This document shows positions 16,638-64,000 of a DNA stretch of 64,000 bases, in pieces. Source of the DNA: Candidatus Altimarinota bacterium (GTDB taxonomy: Bacteria > Patescibacteriota > Gracilibacteria > UBA4473); assembly GCA_018608565.1 (NCBI GenBank), contig JABAZT010000023.1:901-64900 (forward strand). Direction: 5' to 3'. The position numbers and the translations under genes are program-made. Within the stretch, counting starts at the first letter, position 1; every line of letters begins with the position of its first letter. Under the pieces are notes generated by a model. It worked only from the letters and a program-made list of their open reading frames with translations, ran no database searches and was not told the DNA's origin.

Positions 16638-19600
16638 TTATCGAAGTAGCATTTTCCCAACTGCAACTTTTTTACCACCAATTACCACACTCACACTATC
16701 AGCCGAATTTCGAACGATTCGAGACGGAGCTCGCTTTGAAGTTTGACTTGGTCGATACATATAGGATTTGTTTCCTGCGATTCGTTGGTATCGAGCATTC
16801 ATGACAGTGGCATGTTGTTTTTCGGCCGTGTCTTTCGTAGCAATTTCTATGATTTTAGCCTGCTTTGTTTCTGTCTCAGGGATATTTTGGTATCGATTTT
16901 TGATCATCCAGTATCGAGATTCAAAAGCCGTCTGAGCACTTGGCTCAGTGATATCTTCTATCGGCGTATTGATCTTCACGATATTACGAATCGTTCCTCC
17001 ACGGTATTTGATCGTGTTCACATATCGTTTTCCTACTTTTTGAAGAGGAAGTCTTCCAGGCATATAGCCTCGAAAAACTTCAAATCCATTTTCGTTTTCG
17101 TAGAAGAGTACTTTTCCTGCAACTCCTTTATTCATTGTTTGAGCATGTCTCATGGATTCGGTATAGGTCATTCCATTTCGATTGAGGATTCGAAATTGTT
17201 CACGGGTCATGCCTGGAAATCGAAGATTTGTTTTTCCATTAGCTGGACCTTGTTCCACTCCGACTCGAGAAGATCCAGAAGCAAAATTTTGTGTTCGACC
17301 AAATGTAACAGCGCGAGGAGTACCTCCTTGAGTTTCTGAATTTTCAGCAGAGTGGCTAAATCCCAAATTACCAGAGCCTTTAACCAGATATGTATTATTT
17401 CCCTCAAAGTTAAAAATAACATCTGGGTTATTGGACCTAATCGATCGAATACGACCAAAACTGGTAACCGTAAATCCATCAGCATGAGGGGTAACTGTTA
17501 CTTCTCCCGTATCAGCCTCTACAAAAATTAAACTTGCCTCATCATCTCCGTCTGTAGTCTGAAACATAACATCCGTCGAAATTACAATCGGCTCATTACC
17601 AGTTTGGAGCTGGTGTGGATTCGTAATGAGAGCAAGGGACTTATTTCTCAGTACGTCGTCCAGTTCTACATGGACATTTTCTTTTTCTAGATAGTGGTTG
17701 AAGTTATACCAAGAGACAATGTAATCTCGTTGCTTTCGGAGAATAAGTTCATAGTTTCCGTTTTCATCAGTCGTAGTAGAACATACGAAAGAACCAACTA
17801 AACAAGTATCGTTATAGGTTGGAATTCCCTGTACGGTAGCTCCTTTGAGTGGTTTTCCTATTTCATCAAAAATAGTTCCATAAATACCAACCGTATAGAG
17901 CTGTGTATAGATAAATTCTGGGCCAGAAAGGTTCCCCGCTTTATCTCTCACATCCAACACCCTAAATGTATATGGATCATCACTTGGGATAGGGAGTGAG
18001 GGCGTATAGATAGGACCATTTACAGTATTGTTTTCAAGGGTTCCGAATGTTGGATGATCCCACTGAACGTCGTAGTTTCGAATCCCTGAAACACGATCAG
18101 CCGCACTTGTATTTGGGTCAGATTCTCCTGACCAGTCATAAAAGGCATTTCGTCGATGTTTAAACTGAAAATGTTCAGCGCCTTTCCCATCCAAAATTTC
18201 AGTTGGGAGTGTTGGATTAGTTTTATCAAAAATAACTTTAGATCCATCAGTCGTTCCTGTCACACTCATGAATACATTTCCGGCTTCGTCTTTAATATCG
18301 ATAGAAAAGGTGACTGTTCCTTCTACTCCATCGGCATTTAACATTTCATAGGACCATTCTCTTAGGTTGGCAGTATTTCCTTCTGGTGTCGTACAAGTGC
18401 TTCCTGTAAGCCCTTCATCAACCATAGTAATAGCCTGACCAAAGAAAGTCCCAGTCGGAGGATTTGCCAGAGAATCTACATAATCACAAAGCTCAAACTC
18501 AAAATTTATCGTGTCTCCCATTCGAGCATAATACGTAGGTAAATCTCCAAGGAAAGCCGTAAAATCTTGACTCGTTGCCTCAATCTCTACATCCGAGACG
18601 ATCGGGTCAGTTCGATCAAATTGAACCTGAGAAGCGTCATCTACCGCCGTTTTATTGGTGGCATTGTTTCCGGCTTCATCCTGGATTCCAATTCGAAACG
18701 GAACCACCACTTCCGAGGTCTCAGTTCCATCCGTAAACCGTTCAATTGAGCTAGCTCCTACCGCCCCGATGGTAGATCCAGTAACTGACATATTGAGAAT
18801 ATGACTATTGCCTCGGAGCGTTACCGTAGGACTAAGATTATCAGCTGTTATGAAATCTACAGTGATAGTATCATTGGTTTTGGCCAGCGTCGTATCGAGT
18901 ACATTATTAGAAATAATACTCGATCCAGTGATAGTAGGCGCCGTGGTATCAGATTGGATAACTCCGGCGATCAGTGCATTGATATCTCCTTGTACTACGG
19001 TCGTAGTGTTCCCCGCTCGATCAACAATCGTGAAGTTGGCACTCCCAACACTAATCGCTCCGTTATCTCCATTTGCTACCGTAAAGATCAGACTATCACT
19101 CGTAGTGAAGCTTGGAAGATCAACTTCCTGGGTAAGTGTTGTAATATTGGTTCCAGTAGTGGCACTCCCAAGAGTATCAAGGCGAACATCTTCATCAAAA
19201 CCAAGCGTATAGGTAACCGTGTCACCAGATTTGGCCCAGGCAGGATTGGCATTGGCCGAAGCGCGTGAAGCACTATCAATAGTCGGAGCTGTCGTATCAA
19301 TCGTTACGGTTGGAGTTGGAGCTCCAGCCACAAATCCAGTCATTGCCTGTGCCTGAAAATCTTCGAAATCAATGGCGGTAATATTGATCGCACCATCTTC
19401 TCCAGCCAGAGCATAGGTCGTGGTATAGGTTGTCTTTTTCGTCGTCGACTGAGCTTGAGTTAAATCCGCGGTAATTCCTGTAGTAGTCCCAATATCAAAG
19501 GTGATCTGTCCCGTTCCAGCACCTGGACCGTTGAATGAATCAGCGGCACTAAGTGTAAGAGTAAAAGTGAGTGTGCTCGTTGCATTTCCATAACTTGAGT

Positions 19601-20654
19601 CAAACGCGTTATCCGAAACCACTCCAATACTACTAAAGACTGGAGCGGTTACGTCTATATTTAGGTCATTCCCACTCACGGAAACAGTCTCGTTCCCGGC
19701 TTTGTCCACTACTTTTACACAAACAAAATTTCCATTATTGCCTTCAGTATTAAACGTAATCGGAACTCCAGACATAAACGAATTCCCAAACGTGGCGCCT
19801 GTTACACAGGCCGCCGCACTTGCTACGAATCCATATTCAGCACTATCTACATTTGTTTCTGTCACGGTAATCGTCACATCATCTGACGTAGTAGGGCCAG
19901 CATCTACATCATCGGTAAATACAACTCCTGGAGCCGTAGTATCGACTATAATCGAGTCAGATAGAGTAGTAGAAAATCCAGTCATCATATTTCCGACTTG
20001 ATCGGTAACTGTATCAGAAGTGAGAGCAACGGTTCCATTTTCTGCGCCAACGGTAAAGGTTCGATTTCGTGTCGTTACAGGAGTAGTTGAACTCGTAAAA
20101 TTTCCACTAGAAGTTCCAGTGCCTCCAATAGAGAAATTAATATGACTTCCAGATCCTATCGTATCAGTAGGATTTATATTCAATGTGAAATAAATTTTTT
20201 CGCCACTCGCAAGATAAAAATTTCCATCTCCATGTACCGATTTAGCTCCACCACCACTTGTTTGTGCTTGGACCGTCAAACTATCAAATGCAGGGGGCGT
20301 TACATCTATATTGAGATCATTTCCACTCAATAGATAGGTAAACCCATCAGAAGGTTCACTTACACGAACACAGAGATAATCTCCGTTATTCGCTTCACTT
20401 GAGATACTAAAAGAAACGCCTGAAACAAAGAGAGTTCCAAAAGAATCCGAAACATCACAAATTGCATCCGCACTAAAACCATACTCAGTAGCAGTAATAT
20501 CCCCATCAATATCCGTTGCAGATATTTCAATCGTATCACTAGAGACTGGTCCGGCATCTACATCTTGTGTAAATGAAACGACGGGACTTGCCGCATGTGT
20601 CTGAGTAAAGAATAGAAAACTAAGAGATAATAGTGCCAGAAATACTTTTTGCAT
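16638..20654 (-). CDS. Giant secreted surface protein (1338 aa) with repeated Ig-like modules and a carboxypeptidase-regulatory-like domain
   Basis: Signal peptide 'MQKVFLALLSLSFLFFTQTHA'. Recurrent module boundaries 'D(V/T)T(A/P)P' appear at least 6 times. 'GTIFDEIGKPLKGATVQGIP...TTTDENGNYEL' resembles the CarboxypepD_reg fold. The protein is Thr/Ser/Asp-rich. Confidence 0.8.
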   Translation of the reverse strand: MQKVFLALLSLSFLFFTQTHAASPVVSFTQDVDAGPVSSDTIEISATDIDGDITATEYGFSADAICDVSDSFGTLFVSGVSFSISSEANNGDYLCVRVSEPSDGFTYLLSGNDLNIDVTPPAFDSLTVQAQTSGGGAKSVHGDGNFYLASGEKIYFTLNINPTDTIGSGSHINFSIGGTGTSSGNFTSSTTPVTTRNRTFTVGAENGTVALTSDTVTDQVGNMMTGFSTTLSDSIIVDTTAPGVVFTDDVDAGPTTSDDVTITVTETNVDSAEYGFVASAAACVTGATFGNSFMSGVPITFNTEGNNGNFVCVKVVDKAGNETVSVSGNDLNIDVTAPVFSSIGVVSDNAFDSSYGNATSTLTFTLTLSAADSFNGPGAGTGQITFDIGTTTGITADLTQAQSTTKKTTYTTTYALAGEDGAINITAIDFEDFQAQAMTGFVAGAPTPTVTIDTTAPTIDSASRASANANPAWAKSGDTVTYTLGFDEDVRLDTLGSATTGTNITTLTQEVDLPSFTTSDSLIFTVANGDNGAISVGSANFTIVDRAGNTTTVVQGDINALIAGVIQSDTTAPTITGSSIISNNVLDTTLAKTNDTITVDFITADNLSPTVTLRGNSHILNMSVTGSTIGAVGASSIERFTDGTETSEVVVPFRIGIQDEAGNNATNKTAVDDASQVQFDRTDPIVSDVEIEATSQDFTAFLGDLPTYYARMGDTINFEFELCDYVDSLANPPTGTFFGQAITMVDEGLTGSTCTTPEGNTANLREWSYEMLNADGVEGTVTFSIDIKDEAGNVFMSVTGTTDGSKVIFDKTNPTLPTEILDGKGAEHFQFKHRRNAFYDWSGESDPNTSAADRVSGIRNYDVQWDHPTFGTLENNTVNGPIYTPSLPIPSDDPYTFRVLDVRDKAGNLSGPEFIYTQLYTVGIYGTIFDEIGKPLKGATVQGIPTYNDTCLVGSFVCSTTTDENGNYELILRKQRDYIVSWYNFNHYLEKENVHVELDDVLRNKSLALITNPHQLQTGNEPIVISTDVMFQTTDGDDEASLIFVEADTGEVTVTPHADGFTVTSFGRIRSIRSNNPDVIFNFEGNNTYLVKGSGNLGFSHSAENSETQGGTPRAVTFGRTQNFASGSSRVGVEQGPANGKTNLRFPGMTREQFRILNRNGMTYTESMRHAQTMNKGVAGKVLFYENENGFEVFRGYMPGRLPLQKVGKRYVNTIKYRGGTIRNIVKINTPIEDITEPSAQTAFESRYWMIKNRYQNIPETETKQAKIIEIATKDTAEKQHATVMNARYQRIAGNKSYMYRPSQTSKRAPSRIVRNSADSVSVVIGGKKVAVGKMLLR
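19635..19925 (-). repeat. Internal duplicated ~97-aa module, copy 2 (aa 244-340 of the surface protein)
   Basis: 'VVFTDDVDAGPTTSDDVTITVTE...EYGFVASAAACV...GNDLNIDVTAPVF'. The module ends are also similar at the nucleotide level (gttacatctatattgagatcatttccactca vs gttacgtctatatttaggtcattcccactca). Confidence 0.8.
20286..20582 (-). repeat. Internal duplicated ~99-aa module, copy 1 (aa 25-123 of the surface protein)
   Basis: 'VVSFTQDVDAGPVSSDTIEISATD...EYGFSADAICD...GNDLNIDVTPPAF' aligns with copy 2 along its whole length. Confidence 0.8.
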
Positions 20655-22744: not shown

Positions 22745-25123
22745 TTAAATAAACTTCTTGAGATTGCTTAATTGCTTCTGACTCAGAACCCCTAAGAGTT
22801 CCTTATCACTTGCACTTCGGATTCCTGATACGGATTCAAATTTCATCATCAGTTCTTTCTTAGTCTTTGGTCCAATGCCGGGAATTTCATCCAGTATAGA
22901 TCGAGTAGCATCTTTGGATCGTTTGGCACGATTGGCCCCAATAGCAAATCTATGAGACTCATCTCGTATTCGTTGGAGTAGTTTGAGCGCACTAGATTCG
23001 TAGGGAAGCTCTATGGGTTCATCATTTTTTCCAGGACGAAAGATTTGTTCCTCCCGTTTTGCCAGCGCAATGATCTGTGTCTGTGGGTCAAATCCTTCAG
23101 GAATTTGAACAATACCTTCCTCAAAAATCTTCATAACTGTACTCAGTTGGCCTTTCCCACCATCAAGAAGAATTAGGTCAGGGGTTTCCCACTTTGCTTT
23201 TTTCTGGACAAGTTTTTTTCCTAATGGGACATCAGTTTCAGAGCTTCCGTCTCCGTTCCATAGACCTTCTTCATACCCTATTTGTTGATAAAAATCAGAG
23301 GCTTCTTTAGTAGAATTTATAAGTATTTTATTTCGTTCTTCTTGAATGCAGTAATCTTCTACTAGTTCAATTGCCCGAGCCCCAAATCCTTGCTTTTGTT
23401 TATCTTTTCGTATGGCAAATACCCTAATTATCATTGTTTTTTTTCCTTTGCGATCAAGACGGATTGAGCCAATTACTTTATCTTCATGGATGAAGACTAT
23501 TTGTGTATTTTTTTTCTTAGTTTCATCGGGGAAATTTGGATCGTACTTTATATGAGGTAAGTACCGATCAAAGACTTCTGTCTTTCGGATTTCATGATAC
23601 GCTTCGAGTTCTTCCTCCGTCTCAACGGGTTTCATGATTAATCCCTCTAAATCTTCCTTTTCCCCCAGGGGATTCTCTCTTGTGCTAGTCGCACAATTTA
23701 CCTTAAGCAAGGAAGACTTTTCTCCCTCCTTGTTAACGGAGGGGGGAGGGGAGGATTCCATTCGTCCAAATCTTCGTTCCAGTACTTCCTTCATCGAAGC
23801 ATAATCATCAATCTTTCCTGGGGGAAGTGATTTGATATTGTATTTTCGATATTCACTATTCTTCGGTTGCCCATCTATGAAAACTACCTGAGATGCCACG
23901 GGAAACTGTCCGGATAGATGAGAAACATCAAATCCCTCAATTCTTCTGGGAGGAATCTCAAATCCAAGTGCTTGAGCTAGTTCTGGGAGAGCCTTCGCAA
24001 AATTTTCCTCCTGACTCATTTTTTCAATTTTCTGTTTTTCACAAAAATTTTTCGCATTGATATGTGCAATATCAAGCGCTTTTTTCTTATCTCCAATCTG
24101 AGGAGTTATGATCGATACGGTTGTTTGGCGCCCAGTCAGTTGACCCTCAAAAAGATCCAATAAGTAGGATTGAATATCTTCCGTGTTCTCAAGTTCACAG
24201 GGGATATAGATTTCTCGTGGAAGTTCATCAACTTTTTCATAAAATTGTAGTAAAAATCCTTCCATGACTTCTGCGTCAGATTCAAATTCTTCAGCCGAAA
24301 AGACAACCTCATTTTGGTCACGGAGTTTTCCTCCACGGAAGGTGAGCCGAACAAAATAGGCTTTATTATTGTGTCTCACAAAACTAATAAAATCTCGATC
24401 CAGACAGTCGGTAAACTCTACATTTTGTTTAATAGTACTTTTGTCGATAGAGAGTACGAGATCACGTATTTTCGCAGCAGCCTCAAAATTTTTATCTGCA
24501 GCAAATTGCATCATTTTTACTTGCAATTCCTTTACAACTTCACTGGTTTGACCTTTTAAAAAGCGTTTCATTCGGTCAATGTTTGATCGGTATTCTTCTG
24601 GGCTTATGGTTTCAGCTGAAACAATATTGAGATAGTAGTCTTGTCCTGGTTTTACCATTCGAGCGCCAAAATGTTTCTGACAAAACCGAACAGTTTCCCG
24701 AAACTCCTTACTCGAAGTTTTGGGACCAATATAGGTCGCTCCATCTCGTTTGAGTTTCCGTACAATTTCAAGCTTTGGTTCCTCAGCCTTGGTAATTCGG
24801 AGATAAATAAAGTTCTTATCATCCCTCAGGAGTACATTGTATCTCGGCATATGTTCTTTTATGAGATTATTTTCGAGGATAAGTGCCTCAATCTCAGAAG
24901 AAACAATTCGAGTCTCTATTCGTCGTATTTTTTTCACCATCACTTTTATTCGTGTGGATTCATGTTCTTTTTGAAAGTAGTTTGAAACCCGCTTTCGTAA
25001 GTTCTTTGCTTTCCCTACATAAAGAAGATCATTATCTTCTCCATAGTACATATAACATCCGCTATCGGTGGGGATATCTTTTGGTTTAAATTTAAATTCA
25101 GGTGTTTCTTTTTTTTCAGACAT
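22745..25123 (-). CDS. uvrC: Excinuclease ABC subunit C (UvrC) carrying an internal GNAT acetyltransferase-like insertion
   Basis: GIY-YIG 'CYMYYGEDNDLLYVGKAKNLRKRVSNYF', UVR-like 'FEAAAKIRD', 'RIEGFDVSHLSG', 'LILLDGGKGQL' and C-terminal HhH 'IPGIGPKTKKEL'. The protein is 792 aa, whereas the UvrC proteins I know are about 600 aa. The extra ~191 aa (nt 23186-23758) contain GNAT motif A 'VFAIRKDKQKQGFGARAIELVEDYC'. Confidence 0.9.
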   Translation of the reverse strand: MSEKKETPEFKFKPKDIPTDSGCYMYYGEDNDLLYVGKAKNLRKRVSNYFQKEHESTRIKVMVKKIRRIETRIVSSEIEALILENNLIKEHMPRYNVLLRDDKNFIYLRITKAEEPKLEIVRKLKRDGATYIGPKTSSKEFRETVRFCQKHFGARMVKPGQDYYLNIVSAETISPEEYRSNIDRMKRFLKGQTSEVVKELQVKMMQFAADKNFEAAAKIRDLVLSIDKSTIKQNVEFTDCLDRDFISFVRHNNKAYFVRLTFRGGKLRDQNEVVFSAEEFESDAEVMEGFLLQFYEKVDELPREIYIPCELENTEDIQSYLLDLFEGQLTGRQTTVSIITPQIGDKKKALDIAHINAKNFCEKQKIEKMSQEENFAKALPELAQALGFEIPPRRIEGFDVSHLSGQFPVASQVVFIDGQPKNSEYRKYNIKSLPPGKIDDYASMKEVLERRFGRMESSPPPSVNKEGEKSSLLKVNCATSTRENPLGEKEDLEGLIMKPVETEEELEAYHEIRKTEVFDRYLPHIKYDPNFPDETKKKNTQIVFIHEDKVIGSIRLDRKGKKTMIIRVFAIRKDKQKQGFGARAIELVEDYCIQEERNKILINSTKEASDFYQQIGYEEGLWNGDGSSETDVPLGKKLVQKKAKWETPDLILLDGGKGQLSTVMKIFEEGIVQIPEGFDPQTQIIALAKREEQIFRPGKNDEPIELPYESSALKLLQRIRDESHRFAIGANRAKRSKDATRSILDEIPGIGPKTKKELMMKFESVSGIRSASDKELLGVLSQKQLSNLKKFI

Positions 25124-43408: not shown

Positions 43409-43483
43409 TCCCGAGTAGCTCAGTGGTAGAGCAGTTGGCTGTTAACCAACTTGTCGTCGGTTCAAATCCGACCTCGGGAGCCA
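43409..43483 (+). tRNA. tRNA-Asn (anticodon GTT), with encoded CCA
   Basis: A full cloverleaf was folded by hand. Acceptor TCCCGAG/CTCGGGA, D-arm GCTC-AGTGGTA-GAGC, anticodon arm GTTGG-CTGTTAA-CCAAC, variable loop TTGTC, T-arm GTCGG-TTCAAAT-CCGAC, discriminator G, CCA. Confidence 0.95.
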
Positions 43484-43492
43484 CACACTTAT

Positions 43493-43514
43493 AGAGCGAG
43501 AATTCGCTCTTTTT
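43493..43514 (+). terminator. Rho-independent terminator after tRNA-Asn
   Basis: AGAGCGA-GAAT-TCGCTCT hairpin followed by TTTT. The T-run overlaps the stop codon of the convergent Fic gene. Confidence 0.65.
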
Positions 43515-44475
43515 AGTTACGCAATAACAACAACACCAACCCAACCATTCGATCCTTATCCTTCGGATCAGACTCCGCGATTAGCAGCGTCAACGCCGTT
43601 AATGCCTCAGGCGTGATTTTATCGGTATTTAGTATTTTTGCTTTAGATAAGAACCACACAAAAGCAAACGCACCAGAACGTTTATTCCCATCATTAAACG
43701 GATGATTTTTGATAATGAAGTAAAGAAGATGAGCAGCTTTTTCTTCGATTGTAGGATAGGCATCTTGACCAAAAGCCGACTGAAACACGCTTCCTACAAT
43801 TCCTCCAAGACTTCCTTGGTTCTTCGCTTGAGCAAAAAGTTCGGTCGCCTCATTCTTTTCTATTAGATTTTCTTTCAGCCCTGCAATTGCAGATTCGAGC
43901 TCTTCTGCTGTGAAGAGTATATCGCTCTTACTTGATCCACTTGCTGGTAACTCAGATTTATCATAGGCATCCAGAGAGAGCCATGTATGAGCAAAGAGAT
44001 TCACTAGATCCAGAACGTCATCGGCTTTGATATTAGCGTTATTCGGCAACAGCTGTTTGGTATCTTCTATAGCTTTGAGAAACGCTTCATGATTTTGAGT
44101 AATTCGAGTAGGATTGATCGTATATCCTTCTACGATATGCGATCGAAGCGTTTGAGTGGCCCATTGTCGAAATTTGGTAGCAGTCTTTGAGTTGACTCGG
44201 TAACCAACAGATATGATAGCATCTAAATTATAGAAATTAGTTTTATATTTCTTCCCATCCTGAGCAGTTGTTTCCAAATTGGAAATAACTGAATTGGCCT
44301 GAAGCTCTTCATCTTGAAAAATATTCTTTAGATGCTTTGCAATAGCGGGAACTTGCACTTCAAAAATTTCAGCCATTTGTTTTTGAGTGGCCCAAATAGT
44401 GTCCGTGCTAGAGTCCTGACGAAGCTCAATTGCTCCAGTTTCTGATCTGTAGATGATAGGTGATTGATCTGTCAT
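43513..44475 (-). CDS. RhuM-family N-terminal domain fused to a Fic/DOC domain
   Basis: RhuM-like 'WATQKQMAEIFEVQVPAIAKHLKNIF...FYNLDAIISVGYRVNSKTATKFRQWATQTL'. C-terminal Fic/Doc motif 'HPFNDGNKRSGAFAF'. Confidence 0.85.
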   Translation of the reverse strand: MTDQSPIIYRSETGAIELRQDSSTDTIWATQKQMAEIFEVQVPAIAKHLKNIFQDEELQANSVISNLETTAQDGKKYKTNFYNLDAIISVGYRVNSKTATKFRQWATQTLRSHIVEGYTINPTRITQNHEAFLKAIEDTKQLLPNNANIKADDVLDLVNLFAHTWLSLDAYDKSELPASGSSKSDILFTAEELESAIAGLKENLIEKNEATELFAQAKNQGSLGGIVGSVFQSAFGQDAYPTIEEKAAHLLYFIIKNHPFNDGNKRSGAFAFVWFLSKAKILNTDKITPEALTALTLLIAESDPKDKDRMVGLVLLLLRN

Positions 44476-57179: not shown

Positions 57180-58178
57180 CTAAACTTTTATAGCAAGTTC
57201 AACCAGCCGACAAGAGTAACCCCATTCATTGTCATACCAACTCATGATCTTAACCATGTCATCCATAACGTAGGTTAGATCTGCATCAAAGATAGAACTT
57301 CTTGGATCTTGTTCAAAATCTTTAGAGACAAGAGGTAGATCAGAGTATCCCAATATATGAGGCATTTTTTCAGAAGCAGATTTAATAGCTGCGTTTACAG
57401 ATTCAACCGTAACAGATTTTTTTACTTTAATAGTAAGATCTACGATAGACACGGTTGGAGTTGGCACTCGTACTGCCATCCCATTTAGTTTTCCTTTTAG
57501 TTGTGGTAATACCAATCCAACAGCTTTAGCTGCTCCAGTGCTCGTAGGAACAAGATTAATAGCGGCAGCACGTCCTCGACGAAGATCTTTGCCTCCTAGA
57601 TCTAGTACGGGTTGGCTTGTCGTATAAGAATGAATGGTTGTCATAAGTCCTGATTCAATCCCAAATTCATCATCAAGAACCTTGGCCAAAGGGGCCAGGC
57701 AGTTTGTAGTACAAGAGGCGTTAGAGATGAGTGTTTCATTTCCAGTAATTTGATCATCATTCGCACCTATTACAAATGTAGCGAAAGCATCATCTTTTCC
57801 TGGAGCAGAAATGATTACTTTTTTAGCTCCCTGAGTAATATGCTGGGTAGCCCCTTCTTTTGTCCGAAAAACCCCGGTACACTCTAGTACGATATCAACT
57901 CCTAGATCTCCCCAAGGGAGTTCTGGAATATTTCGAGTAGTACATTTTGTAACTTTCTGTCCATCTATAACGAGCGTATCTTCTCCTTCGGTACTTACCT
58001 CTCCAGCATATCGTCCAAAATTTGAATCATACTTGAAAAGTAGGGCACTATGTTTGATCGGAGATGGATCATTGACGGCCACAAGTTCGAGAGTGTCTTG
58101 GTGATCCTGAAGAATGATACGAGCTGCAGCTCGACCAATTCGTCCAAATCCGTTGATAGCAATACGTTTCTTTGCCAT
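57180..58178 (-). CDS. gap: Type I glyceraldehyde-3-phosphate dehydrogenase
   Basis: 'IAINGFGRIGR', active site 'SNASCTTNCLAP', and 'WYDNEWGYS'. Confidence 0.95.
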   Translation of the reverse strand: MAKKRIAINGFGRIGRAAARIILQDHQDTLELVAVNDPSPIKHSALLFKYDSNFGRYAGEVSTEGEDTLVIDGQKVTKCTTRNIPELPWGDLGVDIVLECTGVFRTKEGATQHITQGAKKVIISAPGKDDAFATFVIGANDDQITGNETLISNASCTTNCLAPLAKVLDDEFGIESGLMTTIHSYTTSQPVLDLGGKDLRRGRAAAINLVPTSTGAAKAVGLVLPQLKGKLNGMAVRVPTPTVSIVDLTIKVKKSVTVESVNAAIKSASEKMPHILGYSDLPLVSKDFEQDPRSSIFDADLTYVMDDMVKIMSWYDNEWGYSCRLVELAIKV

Positions 58179-58291: not shown

Positions 58292-60382
58292 CTATCGTTG
58301 TGTCTCTCTGAATTTAAGTGTCTCTCCAATGTAATAGAGGAGGAATAGTTGTAGAATTCCTTCAAGGTTATCTCTGAAATCTCCCATTTTTTCAGAGATT
58401 TCATGATAATTTGGCATAAGCGTATGAAGCAATTTAGTAAGACTTTCTCCGTTTACGTTTCCAGATACTACACATTTTTGCTTGGTTAGATCCTCATTCA
58501 TATCATGCTCAAGTTCAAGAGAAGCGATTTCTTCTAGTGCAGAGAGAAATGGTTCTACATTAACAGAATTATCAAATTCTAACCCAAGTTTTAGTTCAAA
58601 TTTTTCTGTATCAGATCCAAGATTTTTGATTTTTGTTCCAGGATGAAAATTAATAACTACATCTGCAAATTTTTTCTGAGGACGTATATATTTATCAGCA
58701 TCTTTTTCTCTCTGATCCATTTGTTCCAAAACTTGGTCACGAGTATATCCTCGTTTCTTCATGTCTCGTGATATTTTCCAATGTTTTCTCAGTTCTTCCT
58801 CTGGTTCGATAAAAATTTTCATATCCATAACCTGACGCATTCGTCCTAAGTAAAAAGGGTGTAGACCATTAAACAGAACAAATTTCTTGGTATCCATTGG
58901 AAGTGGTTTCGTAAACTTCCCAGTCTTGTGATCATATTCTACTCGATTAATTTCTTTACGATTTTTGAGTTGAATAGCGTGCTCTAGGTCAGTGTGAAGA
59001 TGATTTGATTTTGGATTTAAGTGTGTGAAGTCTTTCCAGTTTTTATCTCCACGTTCCCATCTATGAGCGCCATCTCCATTAACACACAGAGCATGACCTT
59101 CATGGAAATGTTCCAATAGACTTTCTACGACGGTTGATTTTCCACATCCAGAATCACCCCCAATTCCTACGAGAAACGGTTTGTCATCAAATCGATACTC
59201 AGAATTAGACGCAATTCCCATTCGGTAGGCCCAAACAATTGTAGCGAGCATAGAGGTGATCAATACCGTGAAACTTATATTCTGAACCAATTGACTATAT
59301 TCGATGCCAATGATTGAGGGATTGAGAACGATGTCTGAAATCTGTGGAGCAATGATCGAAAAGCTCGTAAAAAAATCAGATTCTTGTTTTAGGATGAAAA
59401 AGGCAAAATAAGCCAAATTCATAAGGGTAAAGCAAAAAGTAGGAGCTTCTTTGTATTTGGCATAAAAATATACCATGAAAGGGATAGACCAATAGAACCA
59501 TCCAGCCATAGGAGGCGCAAGGATGACTACAAATGAGAAGATTATTCCTAGATAGAGGAGAAAGAAATCTCGGGAGATCTGTCTTTGTGAGTAGAAGGTA
59601 AGAAATGCAAAAAGGCATATTCCAGGAAGTACCAAATAAGCAATATTTTGTAGGTTATAGGGGAGCGCTAAATTAAAGAATTTCATAGCCTCTCCAGTCT
59701 CTAGCACCATAACCTGAAATCCTTCAGAGAAAAGATAAGGACTCATGGCTATAAATCCAGAGGCGAGAAAACTACCAAGGTAGAGAAAGAGTACTCGGAT
59801 CGGGACTTTTTTGATAAACGCATATCCCAAAAAGAAGGGGAGCGCGAGAATTAAATGTGTCTTAGCCGCAATTCCAAGTCCTAATATAATAAAGGAAAGA
59901 AGATATTTTTGTTTAAAAATACAAAACAACGACGCAAATAAAATGGCGGTAGGAATAGCATCTAACTGTCCATAAATATAAGAAATATAAAAAAGAATAG
60001 GCGAACACCAGTAAAGATATAGAACTCTCTTGTTTTGCCCGTGAACAAAGTTGAGAAGTCCGATAAGAATAAACAAGTCAGCTAAAAGTAATGGAAGCTT
60101 GAGTATAAACGAATGAAGTAATTGATTATCAAATCCAGCAAAAGGTTTTATAAAAGCAGCTAAAATCCAAAGCATTGTAGTCCCGTATGGGAAAGCCGCC
60201 GGAGTGTTTTCAAAAAATTGGGTATATGGATTACCTCCATGTTGTGCGAAATGTTGTAGGAATGGTAAAAATCCATCGGTAAAATAACCTCCAGCAAAAA
60301 CAGCTCCTGCAATTATTTTGAGCACCAGAACAATCCAAAAGATTGGATGACGGAGGATGAATTGGAGCGTTTCTGGTTTCAT
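58292..60382 (-). CDS. Fusion protein: N-terminal polytopic membrane domain (GT-C/DUF2029-like by appearance) plus a C-terminal phosphoribulokinase/uridine kinase family P-loop kinase
   Basis: aa 1-~395 contain about 10-12 hydrophobic segments. From aa ~400 (nt <=59185): 'FLVGIGGDSGCGKSTVVESL', 'NGLHPFY', 'KIFIEPEEELRKHWKISRDMKKRGYT' and 'YIRPQKKFADVVINF' follow the PRK/UDK (PF00485-type) motif order. Confidence 0.7.
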   Translation of the reverse strand: MKPETLQFILRHPIFWIVLVLKIIAGAVFAGGYFTDGFLPFLQHFAQHGGNPYTQFFENTPAAFPYGTTMLWILAAFIKPFAGFDNQLLHSFILKLPLLLADLFILIGLLNFVHGQNKRVLYLYWCSPILFYISYIYGQLDAIPTAILFASLFCIFKQKYLLSFIILGLGIAAKTHLILALPFFLGYAFIKKVPIRVLFLYLGSFLASGFIAMSPYLFSEGFQVMVLETGEAMKFFNLALPYNLQNIAYLVLPGICLFAFLTFYSQRQISRDFFLLYLGIIFSFVVILAPPMAGWFYWSIPFMVYFYAKYKEAPTFCFTLMNLAYFAFFILKQESDFFTSFSIIAPQISDIVLNPSIIGIEYSQLVQNISFTVLITSMLATIVWAYRMGIASNSEYRFDDKPFLVGIGGDSGCGKSTVVESLLEHFHEGHALCVNGDGAHRWERGDKNWKDFTHLNPKSNHLHTDLEHAIQLKNRKEINRVEYDHKTGKFTKPLPMDTKKFVLFNGLHPFYLGRMRQVMDMKIFIEPEEELRKHWKISRDMKKRGYTRDQVLEQMDQREKDADKYIRPQKKFADVVINFHPGTKIKNLGSDTEKFELKLGLEFDNSVNVEPFLSALEEIASLELEHDMNEDLTKQKCVVSGNVNGESLTKLLHTLMPNYHEISEKMGDFRDNLEGILQLFLLYYIGETLKFRETQR

Positions 60383-60484
60383 TGATCATTAGGCAAAAAA
60401 TCTGATCATTATATCACATTCTTCTCCAAAAATAAAGTCATAAACCGATTTTATTTCTAGAAAGAGATAAAAAAGTTACAATAG

Positions 60485-60889
60485 ATGCTGATCATGAATA
60501 TTTTAAAAACATTTTTATCTCAAAAATTCTTGAGATTTTTAGTCACAGGAGGTCTAAGTACCATCATTAATTACGCTTGTTTTTGGGGGTTATATACACT
60601 TGAGGTTTGTAGTTATATCTGGGCTTCTATTTTTGGGTATACAGTGGGACTTATTTTTGGATATTTTCTCAACAAGTTTTGGACTTTTGAGGCAAAGAGC
60701 CGACATGATCTACAAGAAATTATTAAATATATCACCGTGTATATTATCTCCCTTATAATATCTACAGGAGTACTCTATCTCTTGGTTGAGTATCTAGGTG
60801 TAGATCCAAAAATAGGACAAGTAGGGGCAATTATGGTTTCAACGATCCTAAACTTTATAGGACTAAAAATATTTGTATTTAAAGATTAA
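60485..60889 (+). CDS. GtrA family membrane protein
   Basis: 'LRFLVTGGLSTIINYACFWGL', four TM segments, and the C-terminal 'NFIGLKIFVFK', typical of GtrA-like proteins. The start could be ATG 60485 or 60494. Confidence 0.75.
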   Translation: MLIMNILKTFLSQKFLRFLVTGGLSTIINYACFWGLYTLEVCSYIWASIFGYTVGLIFGYFLNKFWTFEAKSRHDLQEIIKYITVYIISLIISTGVLYLLVEYLGVDPKIGQVGAIMVSTILNFIGLKIFVFKD

Positions 60890-61867
60890 ATGGACCAATT
60901 ATTAGATTTTATCGGTTACAGTCATCAGGTAGGAACACCCCGTCATGTGCAGGGGGGAGGAGGAAATACTTCTTTCAAATTAGACGATGAGTGGATGCTC
61001 ATAAAAGCTTCAGGAACATTCTTGTCAGAAATGATACCCGCGTGTCCTGGAGTAAAAGTAAAGTACCAAAGACTTGTCGACACACTTGAGGGAAATCAGT
61101 TTCCAATCGTATCACAGGAGCACGAAGATTCACTCAATGCCTTTACCGATAAGAATACTGATAAAGATTTTATCGATAAAAAAGCCTCTATCGAGACCTC
61201 TGTACACGCGATTATCCCTTATAAATACGTGGTACATACACACTTAGTGGATATTAATATCTTCACTACCGCCAAGGAGGGGCAATCAGTGTTGAGTTCT
61301 ATATGGCCAGAAGATATGGGCTGCGGTTGGATACCATATGTGTCACCAGGACTTGGGCTTACACTTGAAATTCTCAAGCAATACCCAAAAAGATCAGACA
61401 TTCCTCAAATATTACTGTTTGAAAATCACGGGATAGTATTTGCCGCAGATAGCCTCTCAGAGGTAGGCGATCTATATCAAGAAGTTACTCGGATGTGTGA
61501 TCAATTTCGATTAGATAATGATCTAGAGGCATTTAAGTGCAATGATCTAGAGGCTGGGAGTGGTTTTTTATTTCCAGGAAATTACCTGAGCCCTATCATC
61601 CTTGGACAAAAATTAACACAACATTGTTTTCCTGATTCCGTCGTATTTGGTCAAGATCTGGGAATCGATATGAGTGAGAATGAATTACAATTTAAAAAAG
61701 AGAATCACAGAAAAAATAAATCGGTATGGGAGAATCTTTGTTCGGTAAATTATTTGAATTATGCACACCATAAACTTGGTTGGACCCCAAAATATCTGAC
61801 AGAATCTGACCAACGTTATATCCTAGATATGGGACGAGAAAAACATCGTATAAAACTCAACCAATAA
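60890..61867 (+). CDS. Class II aldolase/adducin-domain family protein (long form)
   Basis: 'HVQGGGGNTSFKLDDEWMLIKASGT' and 'HAIIPYKYVVHTH' match the N-terminal module seen in rhamnulose-1-phosphate-aldolase-like proteins. The start abuts the gtrA stop. Confidence 0.65.
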   Translation: MDQLLDFIGYSHQVGTPRHVQGGGGNTSFKLDDEWMLIKASGTFLSEMIPACPGVKVKYQRLVDTLEGNQFPIVSQEHEDSLNAFTDKNTDKDFIDKKASIETSVHAIIPYKYVVHTHLVDINIFTTAKEGQSVLSSIWPEDMGCGWIPYVSPGLGLTLEILKQYPKRSDIPQILLFENHGIVFAADSLSEVGDLYQEVTRMCDQFRLDNDLEAFKCNDLEAGSGFLFPGNYLSPIILGQKLTQHCFPDSVVFGQDLGIDMSENELQFKKENHRKNKSVWENLCSVNYLNYAHHKLGWTPKYLTESDQRYILDMGREKHRIKLNQ

Positions 61868-61869
61868 AT

Positions 61870-62637
61870 ATGAAAATACTAATACCAATGAACGGCATGG
61901 GGAATCGATTTATTGCTGAAGGCTATACCGATCCTAAGTGGAAAATAAAAGTTTCGGGGAAAATGATTATTGAGCACGTGTGTGATTTTTTCCCAGGAGA
62001 AACTGATTTTACATTCCTTATAAATGAAGATCACGAAAAACATCATCAAGCTCGTGAAATTCTATCTCAGGTACGACCAGGATGTAAAATTATTACCGTT
62101 CCCTATCGACAGAAAGGACCAGTCCCCGCCATGCTAGAGGCAGAGGGAATTGAATCATATATTGAGGAGGATGAAGCCTATATGGTGAGTTATTGTGATT
62201 ATGGTGGGATTTGGGATTGGGCCAGGTTTAAGCAAAAAATGGCAGAAGGAAATTATGATGGAGGGATTCCTTGTTATACAGGATTTCATCCGCCGTTATT
62301 ACGTCCAGGTGTATATGGAGGCTGCAAGGTCGATGCAAATAATGACTTAATTGAAATTAGAGAAAAATATTCTTTTACCGAGGATAAGACTCAGTCACAT
62401 CACGCAGCAGGAATGTATTACTTCCGCACAGGAAAGATTATGAAGGAGTATTGCCAGCGATGTGTTGCGGAGGTTGAGCCAATTAGTAACGGAGAGTGGT
62501 ATGTTTCGATGCCGTATTATCTCATGCAAGAGGATGGACTAAAAACACATGTTTTTGAAATGGAAAAGTTCTTTCAGTGGGGAACTCCTGCGGATCTTCA
62601 AGAGTATGAATATTGGGCGGGTACATTTCAGGCCTGA
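61870..62637 (+). CDS. Sugar-phosphate nucleotidyltransferase-like protein (GT-A/NTP_transferase fold)
   Basis: 'MKILIPMNGMGNRFIAEGYTDPKWKIKVSGKMIIEHV' fits the (L)xPxAGxGxRF...PK..i.v.gk.mi signature. Confidence 0.6.
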   Translation: MKILIPMNGMGNRFIAEGYTDPKWKIKVSGKMIIEHVCDFFPGETDFTFLINEDHEKHHQAREILSQVRPGCKIITVPYRQKGPVPAMLEAEGIESYIEEDEAYMVSYCDYGGIWDWARFKQKMAEGNYDGGIPCYTGFHPPLLRPGVYGGCKVDANNDLIEIREKYSFTEDKTQSHHAAGMYYFRTGKIMKEYCQRCVAEVEPISNGEWYVSMPYYLMQEDGLKTHVFEMEKFFQWGTPADLQEYEYWAGTFQA

Positions 62638-62653
62638 GTCGATGAAAACCTAT

Positions 62654-63352
62654 TTATGAAGCTAGTTTAAATTCTACTTCGTCTTTAAATCGAAATCCAT
62701 TCCTATCCATTTGAAATGTTCCAACCAGTATACCTGCTGCCTGAACTTGTGTTTGAATACGCTGTGTGCAAATTATTTGTGGTAGTTTTATTGGAGGAGT
62801 TCTTGATTCAAGAAATCGTGCAGCTGTAACATGTGTGATTTTAGGAAAAGCCAGTTCTTCATCTACAGCATTGGCAATATCTTGGGATAGTTTCCAAAAC
62901 TTTCCATCAGAAGAAACCCCAGGTGCCACTACCGTACTAGCATTCCAGAGAGGATCTGAAAATTTAACAGTTGGGATTAGTTGGGTTTTTGAGTTTGTTC
63001 CAATTACTTCAGCAACAGAATTTTGTAGTGTTTCGAGATAGTGGTCGTCCGGAATAAATCCATCTACGGTATCCTTTCTTATCACAAAGCAGGTAGTGTG
63101 AACATTATCCTCCGTTCGTCCATAAGGAAGAATCGTAACCTGAGTTGATACAGCCTCTGAAATATTTTGCACAGCCTTCACAAAATCATGATCATATCTC
63201 AATGCAATGATATATCCGGATTCTCCTTCTCCTGCTGGAAATTTATCACTCGAAATAAGTGATACAGATGGAGCTATAGTATCAGCTCCAGGAAACCATT
63301 GAGCATAGTTTTCTTCTTGTTCTTGGTTTAGTTTTTCAGTATCGAGAATCAT
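62654..63352 (-). CDS. 2H phosphoesterase superfamily protein (LigT-like)
   Basis: Two H-x-T-x motifs at the appropriate spacing: 'NVHTTCFVI' and 'ITHVTAARF'. Confidence 0.55.
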   Translation of the reverse strand: MILDTEKLNQEQEENYAQWFPGADTIAPSVSLISSDKFPAGEGESGYIIALRYDHDFVKAVQNISEAVSTQVTILPYGRTEDNVHTTCFVIRKDTVDGFIPDDHYLETLQNSVAEVIGTNSKTQLIPTVKFSDPLWNASTVVAPGVSSDGKFWKLSQDIANAVDEELAFPKITHVTAARFLESRTPPIKLPQIICTQRIQTQVQAAGILVGTFQMDRNGFRFKDEVEFKLAS

Positions 63353-63392: not shown

Positions 63393-64000
63393 TTATGCTA
63401 GATCCTTTTCCCACAAAATATTAGTAGATTTCCCAAGGGCTTCTACCTCAAAAATAACCACTTTTATAAATTCAATAGTATCACCAATACTTGAGCGTTT
63501 TATAAATTGATTAAGAGATGATTTTTCCTCTTGAGATTGAGCTTTCTGAAGATGTGCCATCGTAGTATGAGGAAGAAATTCATCTCCATAAAACGGATAC
63601 CCGGTCATATCAAAAGCAGCTTGTTGCCCTGACGTAATTCCATCAAAGTTTTGTGGGTCAGCAGAAGTTCCTTGGTAGTCAGTTCCTTTTTCAAATGTAT
63701 CAATAATGAGTTGATGGAACTGTCTCAGTAATTGGGTGTTCTTATAGTCAAGAAAGATAATTTTTTGGGCCCAAAGACTCAGTCCCTGAATCGATTGGTT
63801 CCGGTCTAGAAAACTAAAATTAAGTGTATTTAGTCTTATTTTGATCATTTCTATATCTGCAAAAATTCCCTGAAATCCAGTTATATGAGGGATCGCACTT
63901 TCTGGTGTTACTCGAAAACCAAGATCTAGGTTTTTATTGAGTATGTCAGATAATTCATAAATTTTTTTTTGATCATCTTCGTGAGGAACTAAGGCAAAAC
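63393..64000 (-). CDS. 2H phosphoesterase superfamily protein (LigT-like); 5' end outside the window
   Basis: The reading frame stays open upstream of the track ATG (63848) to the window edge ('FALVPHEDDQKKIYELSD...AIPHITGFQG'). The two H-x-T-x motifs are 'PHITGF' and 'PHTTMAHL'. Confidence 0.55.
   Translation of the reverse strand, partial: FALVPHEDDQKKIYELSDILNKNLDLGFRVTPESAIPHITGFQGIFADIEMIKIRLNTLNFSFLDRNQSIQGLSLWAQKIIFLDYKNTQLLRQFHQLIIDTFEKGTDYQGTSADPQNFDGITSGQQAAFDMTGYPFYGDEFLPHTTMAHLQKAQSQEEKSSLNQFIKRSSIGDTIEFIKVVIFEVEALGKSTNILWEKDLA

Follow-up and report, generated by a model that had tools for sequence, protein, structure and literature searches.

What does a sugar kinase do when it is built into the same polypeptide as a polytopic membrane protein? 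The question is raised by one gene in a stretch of 64,000 nucleotides from Candidatus Altimarinota bacterium (Bacteria; Patescibacteriota; Gracilibacteria; UBA4473; assembly GCA_018608565.1, contig JABAZT010000023.1, positions 901 to 64,900 of the forward strand), hereafter called the window. An earlier note on this DNA described a protein of 696 amino acids (aa) joining a membrane domain to a kinase domain of the phosphoribulokinase (PRK)/uridine kinase family, encoded divergently from a small operon of presumed sugar-processing genes. The analysis reported here leads us to regard the fusion as the membrane core of a widespread envelope-glycosylation cassette, which would follow the three-component plan of extracytoplasmic glycosylation and add its own sugar-supply branch starting from ribulose-5-phosphate (Ru5P); we consider the case for this reading to be evenly balanced. 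The components are all of known kinds and their combination is new.

Integrity and distribution of the fusion

A scan of species-representative genomes yielded at least 509 candidate loci, 80 of which, from different species, were inspected in detail. Both halves of the protein lie in one uninterrupted open reading frame (ORF) in all 80, across phyla. A protein search returned more than 120 full-length homologues of about 700 aa, and an exhaustive search with the membrane-domain profile gave 540 cluster representatives at E<=1e-30; since 130 of the top 150 are at least 637 aa long, the fused state is the rule. The full-length AlphaFold (AF2) model (pLDDT 89.7, pTM 0.86) is confident across the domain junction. 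The ORFs and the 102-nt divergent gap are present at the coordinates first reported, every peptide motif cited at that time occurs in the translation, and Pfam, Foldseek and AlphaFold agree with the claimed architecture of a membrane domain of about 395 aa followed by a complete PRK-family domain.

Carriers of the fusion comprise many Patescibacteria, DPANN archaea, Bacteroidota (among them the cultured Eudoraea adriatica, Zeaxanthinibacter enoshimensis and Geojedonia litorea), Paenibacillus, Acetobacter lovaniensis, Myxococcota, Bdellovibrionota, Melainabacteria and Omnitrophota. The nearest named relative, with 61% identity, belongs to a metagenome-assembled genome (MAG) of Candidatus Gracilibacteria. 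Databases name the homologues 'hypothetical', 'uridine kinase' or 'GT87 family', and a search of the accessible literature library found no paper on the fusion and none linking PRK with glycosyltransferases of the C fold (GT-C), GtrA or glycan synthesis.

The kinase domain belongs with phosphoribulokinases

PF00485 matches residues 405-585 with 126 bits against a cut-off of 22, in keeping with the predicted kinase family, and the P-loop (Walker A) GGDSGCGKST is present. The original assignment had left the domain between PRK and uridine kinase. Among NCBIfam models, PRK07429 (the cyanobacterial/plant PRK subfamily) scores 203 bits against 79 for udk, and matches in the PDB range from 9qko (5e-40), Synechococcus PRK (4e-33) and archaeal PRK (4e-32) down to uridine kinases at about 1e-11. 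When the full-length model is compared by Foldseek, some 300 C-terminal residues superpose on whole PRK chains, with TM-scores of 0.80 (9qko) and 0.75 (5b3f), whereas uridine kinases cover just about 185 residues of the domain. The model also contains the C-terminal beta-domain that is specific to PRKs, where it forms the dimer interface, and that uridine kinases lack. The PRK half of the assignment (NF005655, EC 2.7.1.19) is thus upheld by the beta-domain and by the complete Ru5P site described below, whereas a uridine kinase identity is ruled out by the NCBIfam and PDB scores and by the fold coverage; by its scores the domain appears PRK-like while standing outside the curated PRK07429 subfamily. 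A literature search on PRKs of the 9qko type found nothing.

The phosphate of Ru5P is held by Arg64, Tyr103 and His105 in CrPRK and by Arg59, Tyr98 and His100 in MhPRK, and the catalytic loop of CrPRK carries Arg159, Asp160 and Arg164 (10.1101/422709; PMC5241800). A gap-free alignment of the kinase domain to Synechococcus PRK places R444, Y483, H485, R539, D540 and R544 at CrPRK R64, Y103, H105, R159, D160 and R164, the numbering differing by 380 throughout. Across an alignment of 41 family sequences these residues are invariant, as are K536 and the pair D437 and H440 of a 'DDxH' motif. Because none of the published Ru5P-binding or catalytic residues varies, the kinase domain keeps a complete Ru5P site. 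It is, as far as sequence can tell, a complete kinase of the PRK type with an intact predicted Ru5P site, and its substrate is most likely soluble Ru5P rather than a lipid-linked sugar. The proposal that it phosphorylates a sugar or lipid-linked substrate at the membrane accordingly keeps its first element, the tethering to the membrane, and is displaced in its second by the invariant Ru5P residues, which make the soluble sugar phosphate more likely.

The membrane domain is predicted to be a glycosyltransferase of the C fold

By sequence, the N-terminal half of the window protein could not be placed; the fold search alone succeeded. Pfam shows no match in its N-terminal 395 aa, GT87/DUF2029 (PF09594) finds nothing in the protein at E<0.1, and a profile of the membrane-domain family retrieves no PDB sequence even at E<=10. 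An AlphaFold model of aa 1-396 (pLDDT 85.9, pTM 0.88) matches by Foldseek GPI mannosyltransferase I (GPI-MT-I) solved with dolichyl phosphate mannose (Dol-P-Man) (9wno, E 5e-5, TM-score 0.67), yeast ALG6 with dolichyl phosphate glucose (Dol-P-Glc) (6snh, 0.66) and PimE (9dm5, 0.56), with weaker matches to ArnT, ALG9 and ALG12. Relatives of the fusion pass the Pfam thresholds for ALG6/8, GT87 or ALG3; five of 24 match PF09594 at E<=0.01, two of them with 27-28 bits against a cut-off of 25. The initial label 'GT-C/DUF2029-type' agrees with the predicted fold; the DUF2029/GT87 threshold is reached by some relatives and not by the window protein. Judged by its model, the membrane domain is predicted to have a GT-C fold of the ALG6/PIG-M/PimE type, and it may represent a previously unclassified GT-C family.

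Hydropathy and charge predict 12 transmembrane helices and four long outer loops poor in K/R, the first of which (residues 32-67, 36 aa) is K/R-free and contains two helices. The predicted topology is N-in/C-in, which puts the kinase domain in the cytoplasm. The invariant residues of the membrane domain in the 41-sequence alignment (F64-P65-Y66, D102, Y124, Q139, D141, K174, P291, W295, W298 and P301) map to the predicted outer face, as expected for a modelled GT-C site that uses a lipid-linked donor. The acidic residues among them are D102, in the outer half of the third transmembrane helix, and D141, in the second outer loop.

The fusion belongs to a conserved cassette

The three genes of the divergent operon were proposed to encode a GtrA-like protein, a class II aldolase-fold protein and a sugar-phosphate nucleotidyltransferase (NTase), and these identities are borne out. 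The GtrA-family protein (PF04138, 99.5 bits), which a hidden Markov model detects near the fusion in 33 of the 80 loci, may act as a flippase or else serve as membrane partner to a family 2 glycosyltransferase (GT2) of the dolichol-phosphate mannose synthase type. The aldolase-II-like protein scores 49 bits with Aldolase_II (PF00596); its invariant E102, H116, H118 and H180 align with the catalytic Glu and the Zn-binding His triad of FucA, and it keeps the GGGGNTS phosphate motif, for which reasons it is probably active as a metal enzyme. It forms a subfamily of its own, whose C-terminal extension of about 120 aa is specific to the family; among NCBIfam models it best matches domains of the RhaD type, and it is not an orthologue of the FucA-type ribulose-1-phosphate (Ru1P) aldolase. 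The NTase remains below the Pfam threshold (17.7 bits); its G9, G11, R13 and K23, the GxGxR...K signature, are invariant, and a 22-sequence profile matches the NDP-sugar pyrophosphorylase 4evw (9e-16), GlmU (2e-8) and HddC-like proteins (6e-5).

Homologues of the NTase and of the aldolase-II-like protein occur in 76 and 69 of the 80 loci, respectively, and the usual layout is a co-directional operon. Clustering all ORFs of these loci revealed recurrent additional members: a GT2 of about 240 aa (PF00535, 1e-23; 65 of 80 relatives), a phosphatase of the haloacid dehalogenase (HAD) superfamily (PF00702, 2e-26), a second NTase paralogue (NTase2) and a protein of about 198 aa with motifs resembling those of glycerophosphodiester phosphodiesterases (GDPD), replaced in seven loci by a canonical GDPD. 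The GDPD-like assignment is a weak profile-profile match over 41 columns that covers the HR/ExD/HD motifs only, and the protein has no match in the PDB. In the 39 loci with complete flanks of +/-8 kb, the NTase is found in all 39, the GDPD-like protein or GDPD in 38, the GT2 in 37, the aldolase-II-like protein in 36 and the HAD in 34; aldolase, NTase, GT2 and HAD are all present together in 30. These genes nearly always share the direction of the fusion.

Domain fusions physically tie the parts of the cassette together. GtrA is joined to the N-terminus of GT-C-PRK in proteins of 812-842 aa (P0047, P0132), and single ORFs of about 1058-1073 aa encode GT-C-PRK-Aldolase_II in MAGs of Candidatus Saccharibacteria, Paceibacteria and Kaiserbacteria (L020, 4155-7331; L021, 5689-8910; L022, 7914-11090), and also in P0135. 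Other genomes carry NTase-NTase fusions of about 548 aa or NTase-NTase-GT2 fusions of about 766-790 aa (L048, L050 and L069; Omnitrophota and Melainabacteria). The linkage claimed between the fusion and the divergent operon is thus conserved in relatives, both by neighbourhood and by gene fusion, and the comparative data support the suggested combination of kinase, isomerase or epimerase, nucleotidyl activation and membrane transfer for an envelope glycoconjugate.

The description of the locus as a compact module applies to the gene functions and not to completeness. No GT2, HAD, NTase2 or GDPD-like gene is detectable in the 64-kb window (tblastn at 1e-2), which holds only part of the larger conserved cassette. 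The window ends 1.4 kb beyond the NTase gene. At the closest MAG locus, L001, the cassette continues beyond an inserted PrsW gene, and the missing genes may thus lie just outside the window. An exact look-up of the protein turned up no record, an exact 46-mer search for the sequence past the window end gave 0 matches among metagenome contigs, and a search for NTase relatives gave just one contig of 1.6 kb.

The phosphatase, the partner that tells most about the pathway, suggests ribulose-1,5-bisphosphate (RuBP) as the kinase product. Among 41 sampled cassette HADs, 40 match NF053830 (RuBP 5-phosphatase) at E<=1e-30, the best at 1.8e-56, ahead of every other NCBIfam model. The haloarchaeal RuBP 5-phosphatase acts strictly on RuBP and turns it into Ru1P, and its gene shares an operon with one for a Zn class II aldolase acting on Ru1P (PMC9700705). 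In many loci (L002, L004, L010, L016, L017, L022, L039 and others) the HAD gene stops tens of bases before the GT-C-PRK start, at about 7250-7950, which suggests translational coupling of phosphatase and kinase.

A proposed route from ribulose-5-phosphate to the envelope

The co-occurrence in one cassette of a PRK domain, a RuBP-5-phosphatase-like HAD and a class-II-aldolase-fold enzyme suggests the sequence Ru5P to RuBP to Ru1P to a further product. The domain identities, their conservation and the fusions are shown by the comparisons above; the chain of substrates is read from homology and would run as follows. The PRK domain, in the cytoplasm, would convert Ru5P into RuBP, and the HAD would remove the 5-phosphate and release Ru1P. 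Ru1P, unlike Ru5P, is able to close a furanose ring, and freeing C5 would thus allow the ketopentose to cyclise. The class-II-aldolase-fold Zn enzyme might then remodel the ketose-1-phosphate by epimerisation, isomerisation or a similar reaction, one or more NTases would activate the remodelled sugar with a nucleotide, and the GT2 with GtrA would load it on polyprenyl phosphate, so that the lipid-linked sugar would reach the outer leaflet. There the GT-C domain would pass the sugar to an envelope acceptor. With the first and the last enzyme fused, the pathway could form a metabolon held at the membrane, in which the fusion might dimerise through its PRK beta-domain. Use of a polyprenyl-phosphate-sugar donor receives indirect support, by analogy, from the GT2 and GtrA of the cassette and from the best fold matches, solved with Dol-P-Man or Dol-P-Glc. 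The steps past Ru1P are speculative, since the anomeric carbon of a ketose is C2 and the phosphate sits on C1.

Several observations weigh against this proposal. The carriage of the Ru1P phosphate on C1 means that the classical route from NDP-sugar to GT2 needs an extra, unexplained step, and a true aldolase reaction, splitting Ru1P into dihydroxyacetone phosphate (DHAP) and glycolaldehyde, would feed no glycan. The pathway gives the GDPD-like protein no step. Substrate specificity could have shifted in both key enzymes: the PRK score of 203 bits is below the PRK07429 cut-off of 236, and the HADs, at about 160-186 bits, stay under the NF053830 equivalog cut-off of 330 and thus form a related subfamily. 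The catalytic Asp of GT-C enzymes is usually located in the first outer loop, where the alignment of this family shows no invariant Asp/Glu in residues 32-67 and only an N/D-P-Y motif. Lastly, since the window is without GT2, HAD, second NTase and GDPD-like genes, the full pathway is reconstructed from relatives.

Alternative explanations

One could suppose instead that the kinase finds its substrate at the membrane, in a lipid-linked sugar or a lipid such as a polyprenyl-phospho-pentose, which it would phosphorylate on the distal hydroxyl. The pocket for the 5-phosphate of Ru5P would then receive the phosphodiester, and the tether between kinase and GT-C domain would be accounted for. The covalent bond between the kinase and a polytopic membrane domain in essentially all members, sometimes extended to GtrA, speaks for such a substrate, and the phosphate-pentose-hydroxyl geometry fits the conserved phosphate site. 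We nevertheless consider this explanation unlikely: the whole set of Ru5P-binding and catalytic residues is invariant, the best match of the cassette HAD is a phosphatase strictly specific for RuBP, and in some genomes the kinase is fused to a soluble ketose-phosphate enzyme, the aldolase-II fold.

Less probable still is a catabolic or salvage shunt, non-carboxylating, from Ru5P through RuBP and Ru1P to DHAP plus glycolaldehyde, the glycosylation genes being mere neighbours; in the lineage of the window, DHAP would go on towards the adjacent glyceraldehyde-3-phosphate dehydrogenase (GAPDH). The enzyme families do match those of the haloarchaeal pathway, and in the window, as in loci L081 and L082, the gene directly downstream of the fusion encodes GAPDH. 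Such a shunt, however, costs one ATP more than the ordinary pentose phosphate pathway, and GAPDH accompanies the fusion in none of the other 80 loci. It also leaves the GT-C, GT2, GtrA and NTase genes unexplained; the kinase is physically joined to the GT-C domain, and NTase and GT2 are present in 37-39 of the 39 full-flank loci. The aldolase-like protein, moreover, with its RhaD-type NCBIfam matches and extra C-terminal region, is not an orthologue of the FucA-type Ru1P aldolase.

A third explanation would have the PRK domain regenerate RuBP for RuBisCO, in a partial Calvin cycle or an augmented AMP pathway, with the membrane domain as an anchor. PRK homologues of Gottesmanbacteria and Peregrinibacteria have been interpreted in this way (10.1101/386292), and the intact Ru5P site and the GAPDH gene adjoining the fusion in the window would suit such a role. 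The genomic evidence makes it very improbable: no RuBisCO large-chain signature occurs in the window or in the 80 loci, in a search covering 1.2 Mb of fusion-linked DNA, none of the larger ORFs of the window is a RuBisCO, and the neighbours of the fusion are glycan genes, not cbb genes. The family is also found in Eudoraea, Zeaxanthinibacter, Paenibacillus and Acetobacter, genera known as heterotrophs.

The last explanation, anticipated by the earlier note, that a frameshift or assembly artefact unites two separate genes, found nothing in its favour and is excluded by the same continuous ORF in 80 of 80 independent loci from different phyla, the fused length of 130 of the 150 top cluster representatives and the confident AF2 model across the junction.

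Comparison with known systems

In the reviewed plan of extracytoplasmic glycosylation, three components cooperate, a polyprenyl-phosphate-sugar synthase, GtrA and a GT-C, and a pentofuranose variant has been reviewed as well (PMC11127046). The cassette resembles the Gtr-type systems (GtrA/GtrB/Gtr* GT-C, and CsbB-GtcA-YfhO in Gram-positives) in having GtrA, an outward-facing GT-C and, in relatives, a GT2; their logic of a lipid-phosphate-monosaccharide donor, flipping and extracytoplasmic transfer (PMC11127046) is here read from the genes. It differs from them in several respects. Its GT-C is fused to a cytoplasmic PRK kinase; it comes with dedicated enzymes for sugar supply (HAD, aldolase-II fold, one or two NTases and GDPD-like protein); and its GT-C is of the ALG6/PIG-M/PimE type instead of the Gtr* or YfhO family, with no GT2 in the window.

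With the pentofuranose three-component systems and mycobacterial synthesis of decaprenylphosphoryl arabinose the cassette would share a lipid-linked donor derived from pentose phosphate, a HAD removing the 5-phosphate, an auxiliary enzyme of the epimerase type and a final GT-C step (PMC11127046). Those systems, which include a flippase and have the epimerase as an option, start at phosphoribosyl pyrophosphate with a UbiA-like prenyl-phosphate phosphoribosyltransferase and use no NTase, whereas the present cassette has PRK, NTases and GT2, and no UbiA-like synthase was seen in its conserved gene set.

The kinase itself has the fold, beta-domain included, of plant, cyanobacterial and archaeal PRKs and of the 'cyanobacteria specific PRK' structures 9qko, 9qkp and 9qkn (TM-scores 0.75-0.80), and it shares their P-loop as well as the residues for Ru5P binding and catalysis. 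It departs from known PRKs by its fusion to a membrane domain, by neighbours that are glycan genes and not cbb or RuBisCO genes, and by the lack of the conserved regulatory Cys pair. The haloarchaeal non-carboxylating pentose bisphosphate pathway likewise co-encodes a related HAD with a Zn class-II-aldolase-fold enzyme and implies RuBP (PMC9700705). That pathway is catabolic and obtains RuBP from nucleosides via ribose-1,5-bisphosphate isomerase, whereas RuBP would here come from PRK, the aldolase-fold protein is of another subfamily, and the context is biosynthetic and membrane-bound.

The order of chemical operations recalls the nucleotide-heptose pathways (GmhA, HddA or HldE kinase, GmhB HAD, HddC NTase), in which a kinase makes a bisphosphate, a HAD trims the distal phosphate and an NTase activates the sugar; the NTase profile also weakly matches HddC-like proteins. 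In the cassette, unlike in these pathways, the kinase is a PRK and not of the GHMP or PfkB type, the carbon skeleton is another one and the phosphate would sit on a ketose C1 instead of the anomeric carbon. These comparisons lead us to view the fusion cassette as a new variant of the three-component glycosylation systems, and the chance is substantial that a new RuBP-dependent sugar-activation pathway is hidden in it.

Implications for phosphoribulokinase and envelope biology

PRK homologues of Gottesmanbacteria and Peregrinibacteria, interpreted as Calvin-cycle or AMP-pathway enzymes, cluster with divergent cyanobacterial PRK-like proteins of the 9qko type (10.1101/386292; PMC6389311). We tentatively propose, at somewhat below an even chance, that a PRK-family kinase was recruited to envelope glycan synthesis and that a new route with RuBP as its first committed intermediate (Ru5P, RuBP, Ru1P, an activated pentulose or pentofuranose, polyprenyl-phosphate-sugar) feeds this GT-C family in hundreds of bacterial and archaeal lineages. 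RuBP has so far been known, to our knowledge, only as the RuBisCO substrate and as a salvage intermediate.

If the proposal is correct, RuBP and the PRK fold would acquire a biosynthetic role beyond carbon fixation, a new GT-C family would come with a new type of lipid-linked sugar donor pathway, and organisms whose surfaces mediate episymbiosis would possess a hidden envelope glycoconjugate. PRK matches taken as Calvin-cycle markers in candidate phyla radiation (CPR), DPANN and other metagenomic genomes might then in part be this glycosylation enzyme, which would call for caution in counting them as such in genome-resolved metagenomics. The proposal is genetically testable since the cassette extends from CPR/DPANN symbionts to cultured Flavobacteriaceae and Paenibacillus.

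The locus and its surroundings

Table 1. Features of the fusion locus, in window coordinates
Feature	Position	Strand	Basis
Fusion gene, 696 aa, GT-C membrane domain + PRK kinase domain	58292-60382	minus	ORF; stop codon 58292-58294
GT-C-fold membrane domain (predicted), aa 1-395	59198-60382	minus	Foldseek fold match, topology prediction
Phosphoribulokinase-type domain, aa 400-696, P-loop core + C-terminal beta-domain	58295-59185	minus	PF00485, NCBIfam, PDB, Foldseek
Divergent intergenic gap between fusion gene and gtrA, 102 nt	60383-60484		ORF coordinates
gtrA-family small membrane protein, 134 aa	60485-60889	plus	PF04138, 99.5 bits
Class II aldolase-fold Zn enzyme (probable), 325 aa	60890-61867	plus	PF00596, 49 bits
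Sugar-phosphate nucleotidyltransferase (NTase), 255 aa	61870-62637	plus	Invariant signature and profile matches
GAPDH gene (Gp_dh_N + Gp_dh_C)	57180-58178	minus	Domain matches

The genes of the divergent operon are tightly packed (Table 1): the aldolase-II-like gene begins at the base after the gtrA stop, and the NTase gene starts 2 nt past the aldolase-II-like gene. No sigma-70-like promoter was found in the 102-nt gap, which says little for a CPR-type organism. The motif TGATCAT occurs three times in or around the gap (60383, 60403 and 60489), as an operator or by chance; window-wide, CTGATCAT was found 5 times against 4 expected, without enrichment.

The GAPDH gene, overlooked by the earlier note, shares the strand of the fusion and lies 113 nt downstream of it. 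It occupies the same position in the marine relatives L081 and L082 (80% identical) and, being confined to them and found in 0 of 80 other loci, was ruled out as a cassette member. A PRK gene beside a GAPDH gene recalls the PRK-CP12-GAPDH pairing of the Calvin cycle; here the arrangement looks lineage-specific or may hint at a link through DHAP or glyceraldehyde-3-phosphate.

Two unannotated genes on the minus strand converge on the NTase gene, 62654-63352 (232 aa) and 63393-63848 (151 aa). The larger protein has two H-x-T motifs (VHTT and THVT) about 88 residues apart, as in 2H phosphoesterases, and the smaller shows weak matches to 2',5' RNA ligase and 2H families (E about 0.08), with a homologue near the cassette in the Micrarchaeia locus L075. 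The two proteins might take the place of the GDPD-like phosphodiesterase absent from the window; as cassette members they were ruled out, being present in 0 and 1 of the 80 loci, respectively.

The genome, of about 39% GC, is related to Gracilibacteria that recode TGA, and its stop usage is strongly skewed to TAA and TAG; TGA ends just 6 of the 55 ORFs of at least 150 aa and occurs in frame in none of the long genes. An alternative code with TGA read as Gly, as in Gracilibacteria, was ruled out: real genes are free of in-frame TGA and TGA terminates a few ORFs. As TGA is not read through in real genes, translation table 11 is adequate.

The rest of the window consists of ordinary CPR-like housekeeping genes. 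A UvrC homologue of 792 aa (22745-25123, minus strand) has an unusual architecture, with a GNAT acetyltransferase domain at aa 524-619 besides the GIY-YIG and RNase H-like endonuclease domains. Two very large ORFs without a Pfam match at 1e-5, 4427-8614 (plus strand, 1395 aa) and 16638-20654 (minus strand, 1338 aa), could be surface or adhesion proteins of the CPR type. A RhuM/Fic-domain gene (43513-44475, minus strand) adjoins the sole tRNA gene of the window, tRNA-Asn (43409-43483), and the pair may be what is left of an integrated element, or else a toxin-like module.

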